Sequence record: NC_055708.1
Origin: Enterobacteria phage ATK47
Strand: one strand, 5' to 3'
DNA length: 64,000 nt
Positions 37,894 to 43,897 of the stretch are shown piece after piece (position 1 is the stretch's first letter; the number at the start of each line of letters is the position of its first letter). Position numbers and translations under genes: made by a program. The notes under the pieces were generated by a model that searched no databases, had not been told where the DNA came from, and was given only the letters and a program-made list of their open reading frames with translations.

Positions 37894-38529
37894 ATGAAAA
37901 CTACACCAATCACTATCGCTATTGACGCAATCGTAAAACAAGCTTCTTCTTTGGCTACTATGGCCAAAGTAATTAGTCAAAACCCTGCTCGTTATAATGC
38001 TATTCTAGAAACTCTTCGACGCCCAGGACTTAGTAATTATGAAAGCCGAGTAATTATTACAGGTGTTGGTAAGAATGCTAATATTGCAACTAAAGCTTCT
38101 GAGACATTTGCTTCACTCGGTATCCCAAGTATGTACTTGAACACCGGGCATTATTCTCACGGTGATGCAGGATTCATTGCGCCTAATGATGTGTTGATTC
38201 ATATTAGTCGTTCTGGTAAGACTGAAGAAATGATAGGTGTTGCTAAACATCTTCGTATGATTCGTCCTCAGGTTAAACAGATTCTGTTACATTGTAACCC
38301 TGACATTCCACAAGAATACGAAGCTCTTTTTGATTATACGTTCTGTACCGGTATCGCGGTAGAAGTTGACGAGAACTCTTTAGCTCCGACAATGTCCACT
38401 ACATTGTTGTTAGCGCTTATCGATACGTTCGCTATCAACCTTTCGTCTGAACGCGGATTTACCTCTAATGACTTCCTTAAGTTCCACCCTGGTGGTGCAC
38501 TAGGTGCCATGTTACGAGGCGAGCAATGA
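37894..38529 (+). CDS. SIS-domain sugar-phosphate isomerase (KdsD/GutQ-like arabinose-5-phosphate isomerase candidate)
   Basis: VIITGVGKNANIATKASETF...HISRSGKTEE SIS-type phosphosugar-binding motifs. Confidence 0.65.
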   Translation: MKTTPITIAIDAIVKQASSLATMAKVISQNPARYNAILETLRRPGLSNYESRVIITGVGKNANIATKASETFASLGIPSMYLNTGHYSHGDAGFIAPNDVLIHISRSGKTEEMIGVAKHLRMIRPQVKQILLHCNPDIPQEYEALFDYTFCTGIAVEVDENSLAPTMSTTLLLALIDTFAINLSSERGFTSNDFLKFHPGGALGAMLRGEQ

Positions 38530-38669
38530 AAGCAATAACAATAGGACTTTTACTATTGATGCTTGTCATGACTATCTACTGGAGCTTAACGGCTCCAGTA
38601 ATGATTCCGACTCTTATAATCGGATGGATTATGATTGGACTACAAGCAAAGTATGAATGCTTTAACTAG
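38526..38669 (+). CDS. Small hydrophobic protein, 47 aa
   Basis: ATGA overlap; single transmembrane-like segment; not in ORF track. Confidence 0.3.
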   Translation: MKAITIGLLLLMLVMTIYWSLTAPVMIPTLIIGWIMIGLQAKYECFN

Positions 38670-38710: not shown

Positions 38711-40396
38711 ATGAAAAAAGCTGTTATTCTTGGTGCTGGACTGGCAACTCGTTTGTATCCAATAACGCATCATATTCCTAAGGTGCTTGTTAACTATAAA
38801 CAAGACACTATTCTGAGCAATTTGTATACAATTTATTCTGACCTTGGCGCAGATGAAATTATTGTAGTAGTTCATTCAAAATTTGCTGAAACTGTTCGAG
38901 CTTATTGCGAGCAAGAAGGGTTCAATGCGACTATTCGTACAGTTGATGAAGCGTATGGTTCTGCTTATGCTCTTGCTAAATTATACAAAGATTTAGATGG
39001 CCATAATGTAATTGTTAACTGGTGTGATATTATTCCTGATTTTGGTTCATGGTCTTGGAATGTTAACGCAATCTATGTTAAGGGTGATGAATGTCGATAT
39101 AATTTCGATGGTGAAAATATCACTAACGTAGGTTCAACAGGCGGTAATGTTGTAGGAATTTATCAGTTCAAAGACTGGGAATTCTACATGGGTTCTACTG
39201 ATGAGGAAATTCACGAATACTGCAAAGGACGTGATTTCGTAGAATTCCTTTACGGCAGTGCATTCAATAAATCAGAGCTTATGAATCTAATTGATTTAGG
39301 TGATATGCCTAAACTTGAAAAAGCTCATGAAGTTCGTGAACTTAATCGTAGTTTTAATGCAGTTGAAATTGGCGAAGAAACTGTAACTAAATTCGCGTTA
39401 ACCGAACAAGGTCGAGCTCTTCAGAAAGATGAGATTTCATGGTATTTGAAAGTGAAATCAGATTCAGTCCCTCAGTTAGTTTCTGTTAATGAAAATAACT
39501 TTGAAATGGAACGTATTAAAGGTAAGCCGGCATTTGAATATATTAAATCCAAATCAAGTCTTGCTCGTCCACAAATTGTTGATGCAATTTTAGATGCACT
39601 GAAATTCAGCACAGACACTTATTTTGTAAGTCCTGAAACTGTTCGCCGTGATTTCACTAAAGAGTTCTATACGAAAGTTATTGATCGTTGTGAAAGCATT
39701 CAGCCATTGATTGATTCATTTGGTAAAATCACACACGTGAACTACACTAAGATTGGACGTCTGAAGCCAATGTTGAAACAAGCTTTAGAACATCTTATTC
39801 GTTATCATAACCGTTCTCAGGGACAGTACTCTGTTATTCACGGTGATCCGAACTTCAGTAATACTATGATTACTGATAACGGCGAAGTCAAGTTTATCGA
39901 CCCTCGTGGATATTTTGGTGAAACCAAGATTTACGGACCAAAATTGTATGATGAAGCTAAAGTGCTTTATGCTGTTTCAGGTTATGATGAATTCAACGCT
40001 AATCCGACCTGGGGCCAGTTTATTATTGATGAAACAACTTGTAATGTGACTATTAACATCAATCCATTAGTTTACAAATATGGAAAGATGAGTTCGTTTA
40101 ACGAGTATCATCATTTGGCAGTAGCAATTATCTGGATTGCATTAGGTGGTTATTTCAAGAATAATCCACTTAAAGCGGTAGCCGCATATTATAAAGGTAT
40201 GGAACTTCTGACTAAGCAATTACGTAACATGGGCCGTGTACTTCAAGATGGCTCTATTAGTTATGACGTAGCAGAACCTGTAACGGCTACTCTGATTACA
40301 AAAAATCCTGGTAAATGGGTACTAACTGATAAAGAAACTGGTGTTTCCTATCGTCCAATCGGTGGCGATATCACTCATCAATGGGAACGAATCTAA
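38711..40396 (+). CDS. Bifunctional sugar-1-phosphate nucleotidyltransferase / APH-fold sugar kinase
   Basis: N-terminal ILGAGLATRLYPIT (RmlA/GlmU-type motif); C-terminal HGDPNFSNTMI...IDPRG (Brenner-type kinase motif). Confidence 0.65.
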   Translation: MKKAVILGAGLATRLYPITHHIPKVLVNYKQDTILSNLYTIYSDLGADEIIVVVHSKFAETVRAYCEQEGFNATIRTVDEAYGSAYALAKLYKDLDGHNVIVNWCDIIPDFGSWSWNVNAIYVKGDECRYNFDGENITNVGSTGGNVVGIYQFKDWEFYMGSTDEEIHEYCKGRDFVEFLYGSAFNKSELMNLIDLGDMPKLEKAHEVRELNRSFNAVEIGEETVTKFALTEQGRALQKDEISWYLKVKSDSVPQLVSVNENNFEMERIKGKPAFEYIKSKSSLARPQIVDAILDALKFSTDTYFVSPETVRRDFTKEFYTKVIDRCESIQPLIDSFGKITHVNYTKIGRLKPMLKQALEHLIRYHNRSQGQYSVIHGDPNFSNTMITDNGEVKFIDPRGYFGETKIYGPKLYDEAKVLYAVSGYDEFNANPTWGQFIIDETTCNVTININPLVYKYGKMSSFNEYHHLAVAIIWIALGGYFKNNPLKAVAAYYKGMELLTKQLRNMGRVLQDGSISYDVAEPVTATLITKNPGKWVLTDKETGVSYRPIGGDITHQWERI

Positions 40397-40782
40397 TGCA
40401 CCGTGTAGAAAACATGCTTAATCTTTGTTTTGATGTCGATGATTGTATAACAGAGTGGAATAACAATCGTGATTATGTGAACTTCAAACCAGACGTCGAA
40501 ATGGTGACCGCCATTAATGCCCTGTATGATGCAGGGCATACCATAACGCTTTACACTGCTCGTGGTATGAAGTCGGTAGGTCCTGGTCGTATAGCAATTG
40601 ACATTCTCCCAAGTCTGATTCAGAACTTGGAAAACATTGGTTTGAAGTACCATAATTTGCTAACACATAAACCAGTATATGATTGGATTATCGACGACAA
40701 AGCTATGCGTCCTGACGAATTCAAAGCTCTTATGAATAAAGGCGAATTCGAAACATTTAAATCGTATAAACCGAATCTATAA
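40396..40782 (+). CDS. HAD-like phosphatase candidate
   Basis: N-terminal FDVDDCIT (DxD motif); TAATG overlap with upstream gene. Confidence 0.45.
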   Translation: MHRVENMLNLCFDVDDCITEWNNNRDYVNFKPDVEMVTAINALYDAGHTITLYTARGMKSVGPGRIAIDILPSLIQNLENIGLKYHNLLTHKPVYDWIIDDKAMRPDEFKALMNKGEFETFKSYKPNL

Positions 40783-40833: not shown

Positions 40834-42003
40834 ATGCAAAAAATGAATACTTTTAAAATCGGAACGAATTTTGATTTAGCTCTTCTTGATAAAATCGTAG
40901 AGCTCAATAAAACTTATCCTAATAGCTTGATAAATGAAGTATACGGCTCTACAAGAGAAATGGCTTTTGTAGCAGCCAGACCTGATTTTAGGCTTCCTGA
41001 CGTTGACAAAAAGATGTTAGAAGACTACGTTAAACGTTGTAACGAATTAGGTATTTGCTTTAACTATACACTCAACACGATAAATCCTGGTTCAAAAAGA
41101 GAACTAGTTGAGTGGAAGAAGAAAGCTATTCAGGATTATGTTCAGTATCTTTGGTCAATAGGCGTATGGCGTATTACTATCGCTAACCCTGTTGTTATGG
41201 AAATTGTTCGTGAAGTCAATAAAGACATTGAGATTGAAGTTTCAACAATTCTACATGTTGATGCTGTAACTCAAATCAAATACTTGCACGACCAATATAA
41301 CATCAAAAAAGTCTGTTGCGGAATTCATAAGAACCGTTCAGTTTCTTTCCTGAAGCGTGCAGCAGAGTTTTGCAATAAGAACAATATAATATTTGAAGTT
41401 CTTGTAAATGAGTTCTGTTCTAATGCTGGTAAAGGGTATACAACACATTGTAGCTATCGTGACTCTTGCTATATTTTCCATAGTACTGATGTTACCGCTG
41501 ATGATGCTAAATCCTTAAATGGATATCCTATGCAGCACTGTATTAAAGCTCGTGATACAGACCCATTTAACTGGCTGAGAACTCGTTTTGTTCGTCCTCA
41601 AGATTTGAAACTTTATAATGATATTGGTATCACTCAATTCAAAGTTTCAGGACGTACAGGTAGCACAGACTACATTTTGAAAGTTCTTGAAGCATACGCT
41701 TCTGAAAAGTTTGAAGGTAATTTGTTAGAACTGTGGAAGCCTTTAGAGACTATTTTCACTCTTGAAAATGAGACTGAGTTTTCACATACAGTAAATATTG
41801 AAACCTCATTGTTAGACGGTTTTTTAGAAAAAAGGTGGTTCAGACATCCAGATTTCGATTGTGCTAATGAAATCTGCGGGACGACGTGTACATATTGTGA
41901 AAGATATTATAAACGTCAGTTATCTAAAAATGGGTTATCAGAAAACTCTATATCTATTATTGATATAACTAACTCTGATGACGCTTTGAGGTACCCGGAA
42001 TGA
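40834..42003 (+). CDS. U32-family (collagenase-like) protein, possible Fe-S enzyme
   Basis: Block similarity to U32 proteins (ANPVVMEIVREV..IEIEVS; FEVLVNEFCSNAGKGYTTHCSY); Cys cluster. Confidence 0.45.
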   Translation: MQKMNTFKIGTNFDLALLDKIVELNKTYPNSLINEVYGSTREMAFVAARPDFRLPDVDKKMLEDYVKRCNELGICFNYTLNTINPGSKRELVEWKKKAIQDYVQYLWSIGVWRITIANPVVMEIVREVNKDIEIEVSTILHVDAVTQIKYLHDQYNIKKVCCGIHKNRSVSFLKRAAEFCNKNNIIFEVLVNEFCSNAGKGYTTHCSYRDSCYIFHSTDVTADDAKSLNGYPMQHCIKARDTDPFNWLRTRFVRPQDLKLYNDIGITQFKVSGRTGSTDYILKVLEAYASEKFEGNLLELWKPLETIFTLENETEFSHTVNIETSLLDGFLEKRWFRHPDFDCANEICGTTCTYCERYYKRQLSKNGLSENSISIIDITNSDDALRYPE

Positions 42004-42239
42004 TTTCTAGAAAAACTTTTAACCACCAACTTAATGAAGAGATTTTGACTATAAAACTGAACACTAACGAACAAATTCTTAAAAAGGCCCTTATGGGCCT
42101 GTTTGAAACCAAAGCGGCTAAAGTGATTAAAGAACCTGTTCAATTGGAATACTACACTGATGCATTCCTTCATAGTGTTCTTGGAAGTATAGATTCTGAA
42201 GCTTTACGTTATATCAACATTGCCAAGAAATTCAAATAA
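42000..42239 (+). CDS. Hypothetical protein
   Basis: ATGA overlap. Confidence 0.35.
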   Translation: MISRKTFNHQLNEEILTIKLNTNEQILKKALMGLFETKAAKVIKEPVQLEYYTDAFLHSVLGSIDSEALRYINIAKKFK

Positions 42240-42281: not shown

Positions 42282-42998
42282 ATGGGAAAACATAACACAA
42301 TGAAATATATCAAAGCCGCAGATTTTCAAGCCGCATTTAAAGCAGTCAATCGTGAAATTTTAGAAAATCCTGAATTCGTAACTGATTCTCGTATTGGACG
42401 TTGTAATGAAATCGGGTCCATGACAGTAGTTGTTGACAATCCATCATCATTCAAAATGACCGACCCACGTATTAACCGCATCTCTTATGAATATGCCGAA
42501 GACTTCTGGAAGTTTATGATTTCTGGTGGTACTGATGCAGAAGAAGCGTTTAAGGCATATCCTAATGTCGCTAAATTTATTTCTAAACCTAAATCAGACG
42601 CTTTGCCGGCGAACTTCAACACTTTCTATGGTCCTCGCATTGCGGCCCAATTACCAGCTCTTCTAAAAGAACTTAAAGAGAAACCTAACTCTCGAAGAGT
42701 TGTGTTCCAAATTCTAGAAAGTTCTGATCAGGCTTTGCTTGATTCGGACGAAACACTTGAATATCCATGTACTGACTCAGTGACTTATTATATTCGCGAT
42801 GGTAAGCTTTATACCCACTGTCATATGCGTTCTCAGAACTGTGCTGTTGTTATGCAGTTGGATTTTTATCTCCAAGGAAAATTACTTCATTATATCGCTA
42901 ACGAATGCGGCGTAGAAGTTGGTGATTATACTCATACCATGGTAAGTGCCCATGTGTTTGAACGTGATTTTGATTATGTTAAAGGATTCCTTGACTAA
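42282..42998 (+). CDS. 42: Thymidylate-synthase-fold pyrimidine hydroxymethylase (gp42-like dCMP hydroxymethylase, divergent)
   Basis: YPCTDSVTYYIRDGKLYTHCHMRSQNCAVVMQLDF resembles the catalytic Cys region of the TS/dCMP-hydroxymethylase family; position between 43 and uvsX. Confidence 0.6.
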   Translation: MGKHNTMKYIKAADFQAAFKAVNREILENPEFVTDSRIGRCNEIGSMTVVVDNPSSFKMTDPRINRISYEYAEDFWKFMISGGTDAEEAFKAYPNVAKFISKPKSDALPANFNTFYGPRIAAQLPALLKELKEKPNSRRVVFQILESSDQALLDSDETLEYPCTDSVTYYIRDGKLYTHCHMRSQNCAVVMQLDFYLQGKLLHYIANECGVEVGDYTHTMVSAHVFERDFDYVKGFLD

Positions 42999-43897
42999 TG
43001 GCTATTTTCCGCGTACCAATCTTGAGTATGCGGTCTTATGAAACTGGACAGTATGCTATCCTTAAGGATGGCAACTTCCAACTTCATTTGCACCGTGCTA
43101 ATCCAGGTGATGTGATTACATATCCACGTAATGCATCTGATATTAAAGAATGTGAACGTCTTTTCCCGGAATTTAAGTTTGTTCCATTATGGTATAAAGA
43201 TAACGCGTATAACACTCGTAAATATTTCTGGTCTGAAAATGAATTTGTGGTTGATTCATTAATTGCTTATTATGATTGTGATTTTCTAATAACAGATATC
43301 ACTGGATATGACGGCGCTTTTGATGTAGAATTCAATTTCAATATCACTGCAGACCCTAATAAACCACGTTTTTATATTGATGAATTCTTAAAAACCGATA
43401 TGTTGTCGGTTAATCGTTCACTTCAAACTACTGTGTTGAATGAACGTCAAAAAGAAGTGCTGGTTAACGCCGGTGCAGATGGTAATAAGATTATCGTAAC
43501 GCAGAAAGTTATACGTCCTTCCATCATGCAGCGTCTTGTAGGTGATTTGGCTCCTATTCATGTAGATGGTATTTTTCATCCATTTCGAATTAGTGATCCG
43601 TGTTATCATTTTGAACAAGTGGTTGAATGTGCAATTCAATTAGGTCAACCGCTTTATATAACTGATCCAAATAATAGCTTTGACAGAAATAAGTATCCTG
43701 AAGAAGCGCTGATTCGAATTTTTAAACCAACTAAAACTGAGTACTATCAAATTCTTAAAGGACGTCCGAAGATTCAATATTTCGAAAATCCTGAAGAAGT
43801 ATTCCATCCAGGTCTTGGTGAGTTCATCTACTTTAATGCTTTAATTTCTTCGCCGTATAATATACCTAAATACGAAGATGTCGTAATCGAGGAATAA
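42998..43897 (+). CDS. Hypothetical protein, 299 aa (occupies the T4 beta-gt position)
   Basis: ATGA overlap with the gp42-like gene; no recognisable motif. Confidence 0.4.
   Translation: MAIFRVPILSMRSYETGQYAILKDGNFQLHLHRANPGDVITYPRNASDIKECERLFPEFKFVPLWYKDNAYNTRKYFWSENEFVVDSLIAYYDCDFLITDITGYDGAFDVEFNFNITADPNKPRFYIDEFLKTDMLSVNRSLQTTVLNERQKEVLVNAGADGNKIIVTQKVIRPSIMQRLVGDLAPIHVDGIFHPFRISDPCYHFEQVVECAIQLGQPLYITDPNNSFDRNKYPEEALIRIFKPTKTEYYQILKGRPKIQYFENPEEVFHPGLGEFIYFNALISSPYNIPKYEDVVIEE

Follow-up and report, generated by a model that had tools for sequence, protein, structure and literature searches.

A nucleotidyltransferase-kinase fusion gene in phage ATK47

The DNA analysed in this work is a stretch of 64,000 nucleotides from Enterobacteria phage ATK47 (NC_055708.1), hereafter referred to as the window. 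Positions 38711..40396 of its plus strand are occupied by one ATG-initiated open reading frame (ORF) of 561 amino acids (aa), with a GAGG Shine-Dalgarno sequence 8 nt 5' of the start codon. An earlier note made from the DNA letters had proposed that a sugar-1-phosphate nucleotidyltransferase and an APH-fold kinase are fused in this polypeptide. The proposal is upheld by the presence of a single ORF, by sequence motifs, by an AlphaFold2 model and by Foldseek comparisons. We consider it very probable that the product is an AfhE-type bifunctional enzyme of the phage UDP-D-arabinofuranose route for DNA hypermodification. The gene and its parts are as follows:

38711..40396, plus strand: AfhE-type bifunctional gene, predicted arabinose-5-phosphate 1-kinase and UDP-arabinofuranose pyrophosphorylase, 561 aa; orthologue of RB69 ORF53_52c (gp52:53)
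38711..39325, plus strand: sugar-1-phosphate nucleotidyltransferase domain, aa 1 to ~205; G8-x-G10-x-x-T-R14 ... K24, acidic residues D106, D195 and D198
39344..40231, plus strand: APH/choline-kinase-fold kinase domain, aa ~212-507; K227, E241, loop H377-G-D379-x4-N384, metal-binding D397 in IDPRG
40232..40393, plus strand: C-terminal extension of ~54 aa (aa 508-561), mostly beta strand according to the secondary structure of the model

The N-terminal part is a nucleotidyltransferase as proposed, with a domain of ~205 aa instead of the ~230 aa that had been suggested. The signature motif GAGLATRLYPIT is found at aa 8-19 (nt 38732-38767), and residues 3-99 match Pfam NTP_transferase (PF00483) with 37 bits (E 3.7e-9), thus passing the cut-off of 21.2 bits. 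For conservation and profile analysis, we used an alignment of 44 fusion homologues that are 29-75% identical. When the profile was compared with the PDB, the best match of the N-terminal half was HddC (4e-14), and LicC was also found (1.6e-11). Residues G10, R14, K24, D106, D195 and D198 are invariant in the 44 sequences, and the three aspartates are candidate metal ligands.

A single-sequence AlphaFold2 model of the protein was unusable (predicted local distance difference test score, pLDDT, 34), and an alignment-based model was used instead (mean pLDDT 93.5, predicted template modelling score 0.90). The N-terminal domain shows a Rossmann-like, GT-A-type pyrophosphorylase fold in this model; all its top fold matches are pyrophosphorylases and none is a glycosyltransferase. 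The predicted fold is of the RmlA/LicC type.

The kinase half contains HGDPNFSNTMI at aa 377-387 (nt 39839-39871) and IDPRG at aa 396-400 (nt 39896-39910); like the N-terminal signature, both motifs lie where the earlier note had placed them. An H-x-D-x4-N loop, a downstream metal-binding aspartate and an ATP-binding Lys/Glu pair are all present. Among the 44 homologues, K227, E241, G378, D379, N384, D397 and R399 are invariant and H377 is nearly so. The Pfam matches of the kinase half itself fall at residues ~354-409 and are all below threshold: Fructosamin_kin (16.9 bits, cut-off 22.4), EcKL and Seadorna_VP7. The homologues P0056, P0083 and L063 do pass Pfam APH (PF01636), with 25.6-32.1 bits against a cut-off of 23.2. 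The profile of the homologues gives a weak PDB match to RIO2 kinase at positions ~340-395. The model predicts a bilobal kinase fold for the C-terminal half, and Foldseek concurs, with APH(2'')-IIa at 2.9e-7 over 315 columns. Because the profile scores are sub-threshold, assignment to the APH/choline-kinase fold is based on motifs, homologues and predicted fold, which all agree with the original proposal.

Altogether, the predicted catalytic residues of both domains are those expected of active enzymes, and their conservation confirms the two-domain fusion. Profile searches and structure prediction detected neither a C-terminal half of non-kinase fold nor the loss of the N-terminal nucleotide-binding pocket. 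The AfhE type is likewise expected to be a polypeptide of ~560 aa in which the nucleotidyltransferase is N-terminal and the APH-fold kinase C-terminal. The C-terminal extension is kept in phage homologues and is largely missing from cellular ones, whose matches mostly stop at query residues ~497-514; it might have a role in oligomerisation or in docking with the HAD phosphatase.

Over 6 kb, the window matches Enterobacteria phage ATK48 with 100% identity, and ~150 further phage records are 95-99% identical across the same stretch. ATK48 is a Mosigvirus and an RB69-like relative of the T-even phages. In the ATK48 GenBank record (KT184310.1), both the fusion ORF (561 aa) and a glycosyltransferase ORF of 299 aa are unannotated. 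Within the fusion ORF, the same record marks features of 10-11 bp as 'StbAB binding site' and 'ori type 2 repeat', which have the appearance of chance matches.

With RB69 ORF053c plus ORF052c, two ORFs that appear as separate in the RB69 record because of a one-base sequencing error, the protein shares 99.4-99.5% identity. Thomas et al. corrected the error in 2018, expressed the product as a single protein of 63.9 kDa and proposed it as a candidate for UDP-arabinose biosynthesis (PMC6024577). Identity is 96% (542/562) with XAN60479.1, the syntenic ORF of Escherichia phage HY126, 57% with DLP3 gp82 and 54% with Thanatos TH1_060. RB69 gp52:53 and DLP3 gp82 are presented as transferase-plus-kinase enzymes in a 2026 Nucleic Acids Research paper that deals with RB69 and the Acinetobacter phage DLP3 (PMC13326640). 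In Shewanella phage Thanatos, TH1_060 is essential for phage propagation (PMC12838424). We found no substantive difference between the ATK47 protein and HY126 AfhE, RB69 gp52:53, DLP3 gp82 or Thanatos TH1_060: family, length, two-domain layout and gene neighbourhood are all shared. A sequence search of the PDB returned no chain of the fusion protein itself.

The combination of both activities had been thought unusual in a phage. This view does not hold: a tblastn search recovers the fusion from 372 phage records, at nearly full length in 362 of these, and the hosts include Escherichia, Acinetobacter, Klebsiella, Vibrio, Shigella and Serratia, among others. Indeed, the enzyme is already known as AfhE or RB69 gp52:53, and it was flagged in RB69 in 2018 (PMC6024577). 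As its biology has been published, the value of the present analysis is one of confirmation, both domains having been recognised from sequence alone in an unannotated ORF.

Gene neighbourhood and a candidate route to UDP-arabinofuranose

The genes that surround the fusion in the window are listed below:

37894..38529, plus strand: SIS-domain arabinose-5-phosphate isomerase, 211 aa, RB69 gp55; Pfam SIS 4.1e-10, 97% identical to RB69
38526..38669, plus strand: small hydrophobic ORF, 47 aa, equivalent of RB69 ORF054c; known from its translation, annotated in Bas47 and LC53 ('transmembrane segment')
40381..40782, plus strand: small HAD-type phosphatase, 133 aa, RB69 gp51, AfhF-like; NCBIfam TIGR01689 2e-13, below cut-off, PDB 9iqw
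40834..42003, plus strand: U32-family protein, 389 aa, RB69 gp50; Pfam Peptidase_U32 7.4e-11
42000..42239, plus strand: ORF of 79 aa, RB69 ORF049c; ORF call without detectable family
42282..42998, plus strand: thymidylate-synthase homologue, 238 aa, RB69 gp48; Pfam Thymidylat_synt 2.4e-15, 99% identical to RB69 gp48
42998..43897, plus strand: putative first DNA arabinosyltransferase, 299 aa, RB69 gp46:47; 98-99% identical to RB69 gp46 plus gp47, assignment from PMC13326640

The cluster thus reads SIS isomerase, 47-aa ORF, fusion, HAD phosphatase, U32 protein, 79-aa ORF, ThyA-like enzyme, glycosyltransferase and a thymidylate-kinase-like gene. Its core (SIS isomerase - fusion - HAD - ThyA-like - glycosyltransferase) has the same order in RB69, HY126, LC53, DLP3 and Bas47. 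The window therefore contains the complete AfhE-type neighbourhood, made of an arabinose-5-phosphate isomerase, a HAD phosphatase, a ThyA-like enzyme and a DNA glycosyltransferase.

The isomerase matches the NCBIfam models KpsF/GutQ (5e-32) and KdsD (2e-30), under the full-length cut-offs of both because the CBS half is missing. The start of the HAD phosphatase gene overlaps the stop of the fusion by 16 nt. TIGR01689 is the NCBIfam model of a capsule-biosynthesis phosphatase, and the PDB holds a near-identical solved chain (9iqw, E 1e-86). Near-identical solved chains exist also for the ThyA-like enzyme (9iqc, 9ir2 and 9iqu, E 2e-161), and the crystal structures of these two neighbours fit a system that has been studied biochemically. 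No sequence match to the 299-aa putative arabinosyltransferase was found in Pfam, NCBIfam or the PDB. A scan for promoters and terminators around the cluster yielded sites no more numerous than in shuffled sequence.

The ThyA-like gene is annotated as 'deoxycytidylate 5-hydroxymethyltransferase' or 'thymidylate synthase'. RB69 gp48 has been described, however, as a flavin- and O2-dependent 5-hydroxy-dCMP synthase and not a dCMP hydroxymethylase (PMC13326640). Hence, the arabinosylated base is 5-hydroxycytosine (arabinosyl-5-hydroxycytosine) and not hydroxymethylcytosine as first thought.

On these grounds, a route can be proposed for the supply of the activated sugar. The upstream SIS isomerase would convert host ribulose-5-phosphate into D-arabinose-5-phosphate. 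The C-terminal APH-fold kinase would then use ATP to phosphorylate the anomeric C1, yielding arabinofuranose-1,5-bisphosphate; in this reaction D379 would be the catalytic base, Mg2+ would be coordinated by N384 and D397, and ATP would be bound by K227/E241. The 5-phosphate would be stripped by the downstream, translationally overlapping HAD phosphatase. The N-terminal nucleotidyltransferase could next combine arabinofuranose-1-phosphate and UTP into UDP-arabinofuranose and pyrophosphate, with the G-x-G-x-x-T-R...K loop binding the nucleoside triphosphate (NTP) and D106 and D195/D198 binding Mg2+. Glycosyltransferases would finally put arabinose on the 5-hydroxycytosine of phage DNA, thereby protecting it against host nucleases.

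A de novo, three-enzyme and four-step route from ribulose-5-phosphate is the best-supported interpretation, and not the salvage of a free sugar. One argument is that a KpsF/GutQ-type isomerase and a small HAD phosphatase flank the fusion gene. Another is the existence of homologues in which HAD, SIS, transferase and kinase domains form a single polypeptide. A third is that HY126 AfhE, 96% identical, is reported to act on arabinose-5-phosphate (PMC13326640). There, He et al. (2026) are cited for the conversion of arabinose-5-phosphate into the 1,5-bisphosphate by AfhE, and for its dephosphorylation by the HAD protein AfhF before the uridylyltransferase step.

Several observations weigh against assigning the ATK47 protein to this route. 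On its own, the kinase half of the sequence passes no Pfam or NCBIfam threshold. XAN60479.1 is likely to be AfhE on the basis of synteny and of the description given in PMC13326640, not of an accession. Substrate, step order and nucleotide specificity of AfhE, including the choice of UTP, come second hand through the same paper. Furthermore, Table 1 of that paper carries the labels 'dephosphorylates Araf5P to Ara' and 'phosphorylates Ara to Araf1P' (PMC13326640). Lastly, Thanatos TH1_060 had no pyrophosphorylase activity on xylose-1-phosphate with any NTP (PMC12838424), a negative result that is uninformative on arabinofuranose-1-phosphate, yet provides no positive support.

The main alternative is that unphosphorylated D-arabinose or another pentose is phosphorylated at C1 and then activated by the transferase. 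The sugar would come either from the environment, in the salvage logic of AmgK and NahK envisaged by the earlier note, or from arabinose-5-phosphate if the HAD phosphatase acts first. We regard this order of events as improbable, and keep it as a minor rival because the biochemistry of AfhE is available second hand and because the older labelling persists in Table 1 of PMC13326640. The text of the same paper, with reference to the HY126 biochemistry, has the enzyme phosphorylating Araf5P to the 1,5-bisphosphate, with AfhF acting afterwards. In phages, and in half of the loci from cells, the gene adjoins one for a dedicated arabinose-5-phosphate isomerase, and several invariant basic residues of the kinase domain other than the ATP lysine (R213, R326, R399 and K417) could hold a second phosphate. 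Free D-arabinose is not known to be a normal metabolite of E. coli. At the sequence level, the fusion kinase falls outside the AmgK/NahK-type anomeric kinases of free sugars. In sum, the view that kinase and transferase cooperate to build a nucleoside diphosphate (NDP) sugar stands, while two-step salvage of the AmgK/NahK type is at odds with the isomerase and phosphatase context and with the literature on AfhE.

Two other readings deserve hardly any credence. One is a LicCA-like choline or ethanolamine kinase plus cytidylyltransferase whose product would be CDP-choline or a similar CDP-alcohol: LicC and LicA share just 12-20% identity with the protein, choline genes are missing from a conserved neighbourhood that instead encodes a sugar-phosphate isomerase, a phosphatase and DNA glycosyltransferases, and the DNA of these phages bears arabinose, not phosphocholine. 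The other, once considered for RB69 ORF053c and Thanatos TH1_060, is a GT-A glycosyltransferase plus phosphotransferase acting directly on DNA or nucleotides; a CDD label ('glycosyltransferase family A superfamily') on the N-terminus speaks for it (PMC6024577, PMC12838424), but the nucleotidyltransferase signature G-x-G-x-x-T-R...K is invariant and the top fold matches are as described above, scores against hidden Markov models of phage glucosyltransferases are poor (PMC6024577), and TH1_060 moved no sugar onto DNA in vitro (PMC12838424).

If the AfhE-type assignment is correct, the ATK47 enzyme supplies the activated sugar for arabinosyl-5-hydroxycytosine DNA. This modification gives RB69-like, Acinetobacter, Serratia and Shewanella phages protection against restriction enzymes and CRISPR nucleases, and type IV systems in turn target it. 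The subject is thus relevant to the choice of therapy phages and to the enzymatic synthesis of UDP-arabinofuranose.

Variations of the cluster were also detected. The 47-aa ORF (MKAITIGLLLLMLVMTIYWSLTAPVMIPTLIIGWIMIGLQAKYECFN) is strongly hydrophobic and overlaps the stop codon of the isomerase gene, and its position is kept in Bas47, HY126, LC53 and RB69. In Serratia phage LC53, a homing-endonuclease-like gene with a NUMOD3 motif (L088 3852-4490) lies between the HAD phosphatase and U32 genes; the window has no such gene. The Dhakavirus Escherichia phage JS98 (L090 5440-10175) contains the fusion gene (42% identical) and the HAD, ThyA-like and glycosyltransferase genes. SIS isomerase and U32 genes are absent from its cluster, and an unrelated ORF of 166 aa precedes the fusion gene. 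A tentative interpretation is that JS98 may use a different source of sugar phosphate, or a different sugar.

A possible role for the U32-family neighbour

The phage family to which the U32 protein belongs has ten invariant cysteines, and comparison with the core of E. coli RlhA using hhalign gives an E value of 2e-5, with a C-x5-C-Y-x-x-H stretch included in the match. A gene for chorismate mutase, the enzyme that produces prephenate, lies between the U32 and ThyA-like genes in 54 phage records (Klebsiella, Serratia, Yersinia, Enterobacter, Proteus and others). In LC53, where the U32 gene is found at L088 4492-6002, the chorismate mutase passes Pfam CM_2 (1.7e-11).

The U32 protein was termed a 'sugar or heterocycle reductase' in the 2026 paper (PMC13326640). 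Those U32 proteins that have been characterised are hydroxylases that work independently of oxygen: RlhA forms 5-hydroxycytidine in 23S rRNA (PMC5727448), TrhP forms 5-hydroxyuridine in tRNA (PMC6599085), and UbiU/UbiV take the oxygen from prephenate when they hydroxylate ubiquinone precursors (PMC10990095). Since the ThyA-like hydroxylase requires O2 (PMC13326640), an anaerobic route can be suspected, and the U32 protein (40834-42003) may be an O2-independent, prephenate-dependent cytosine C5-hydroxylase that serves as a backup for the ThyA-like enzyme. In the literature searched, which did not comprise two key primary papers, no paper links U32 proteins or prephenate to phage 5-hydroxycytosine.

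The distribution of the gene agrees with this idea in part. The fusion occurs in 57 Acinetobacter phage records, and the hosts listed for the U32 gene do not include Acinetobacter, a pattern that fits an anaerobic role because these hosts are strict aerobes. However, E. coli Dhakaviruses such as JS98 are likewise without U32 gene, and the correlation is imperfect. Homologues that are ~55% identical were detected on two phage-genome-like contigs of 466 kb and 80 kb (L084 5447-7086 and L085 6001-7891), next to genes for dCMP/cytidine deaminase, a UDG-family protein, DNA polymerase III alpha and a DAHP/KDO8P-synthase-family protein. No nucleotidyltransferase-kinase fusion gene was found within 6 kb of these two homologues, and their context points to nucleotide or base chemistry as their field of action, more than to the sugar pathway.

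Two loci considered at one point as cellular examples that link a U32-like gene to the sugar pathway (L006 and L007) were withdrawn from that inference. Because it carries T4-like topoisomerase genes, L007 probably represents a phage contig that was binned as a metagenome-assembled genome (MAG). We also considered the 79-aa ORF of the window as a diverged chorismate mutase and rejected it, as neither BLASTP nor Pfam revealed similarity. In Yersinia phage phiR1-RT, its homologue is present in addition to a chorismate mutase, which indicates a different protein.

Related pathways and homologues beyond phages

The logic of the phage route is identical to that of two heptose pathways: GmhA/HldE/GmhB, which makes ADP-L-glycero-D-manno-heptose, and HddA/HddC with GmhA/GmhB, which makes GDP-heptose. 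All involve a SIS isomerase, an anomeric kinase that acts on a terminally phosphorylated sugar, a HAD phosphatase and a nucleotidyltransferase, and HldE likewise fuses kinase and transferase. In HldE, however, the kinase has the PfkB/ribokinase fold, the transferase has the cytidylyltransferase fold, and the domain order is opposite to that of the phage fusion. With APH-fold and RmlA/LicC-fold domains, the ATK47 protein does not belong with HldE, whose PfkB-fold kinase is joined to a cytidylyltransferase-fold adenylyltransferase. The likeness to the HldE pathway is therefore an analogy and not homology, except for the HddC-like transferase.

In Fkp of Bacteroides and AFKP80 of Leishmania, which are bifunctional sugar-1-kinases/GDP-sugar pyrophosphorylases, the pyrophosphorylase is N-terminal and both activities reside in a single polypeptide as in the phage fusion. 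AFKP80 activates D-arabinose. Unlike the phage enzyme, both have a kinase of the GHMP fold, give a GDP-pyranose as product and perform true salvage of free sugars. LicC and LicA, a CTP:phosphocholine cytidylyltransferase and a choline kinase that are fused as LicCA in some bacteria, differ in the amino-alcohol substrate, in the use of CTP and in having no phosphatase step. AmgK/MurU and NahK comprise APH-fold anomeric kinases with a partner uridylyltransferase; they are separate proteins that salvage free sugars. In contrast, according to a second-hand report, the phage type acts on a sugar 5-phosphate that is produced de novo, and a phosphatase acts in between.

Bacterial and archaeal homologues of the fusion are 24-35% identical. 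Among 78 such loci, 39 (L063 and 38 others of L005-L081) have a SIS isomerase gene directly beside the fusion gene, and single-chain proteins of 890-955 aa exist that unite HAD, SIS, nucleotidyltransferase and kinase domains. Both the adjacency and the four-domain proteins provide independent comparative support for a functional link. An example is found on the chromosome of Trichodesmium erythraeum IMS101 (L063 4798-7485), where the neighbouring isomerase passes the KpsF/GutQ threshold of NCBIfam. An ABC exporter, a TylF-type methyltransferase and a TauD dioxygenase are also encoded beside it, a setting that suggests a glycan or natural-product pathway. An ORF of 131 aa that follows the Trichodesmium fusion was examined as a homologue of the phage HAD phosphatase and discarded because the similarity was not significant.

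These data led us to the tentative idea, which we consider somewhat less probable than its contrary, that the fusion family reaches beyond T4-like phages and DNA modification, and takes part in synthesis of NDP-D-arabinofuranose or a related pentofuranose elsewhere. Were it true, the formation of NDP-pentofuranose from ribulose-5-phosphate would be a widespread glycan route, distinct from the mycobacterial decaprenyl-phosphate route. The literature searched contains no description of a glycan-directed NDP-D-arabinofuranose route from ribulose-5-phosphate.

Additional homologues were recorded from diverse sources. Two of the contigs (L003 and L004) belong to T4-like phages and had been binned as MAGs. 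A fusion of 926 aa with HAD, SIS, nucleotidyltransferase and kinase domains (P0084, L092 6001-8781) occurs in a eukaryotic assembly. Its contig also has a MutS7-type MutS-HNH gene, an RNA polymerase Rpb2 gene and an Atg3-like gene, and looks like a giant virus (Nucleocytoviricota) context. The transcriptome of the slime mould Ceratiomyxa fruticulosa includes a four-domain version of 955 aa (P0091), and an Indivirus protein with a similar fold is found in BFVD.

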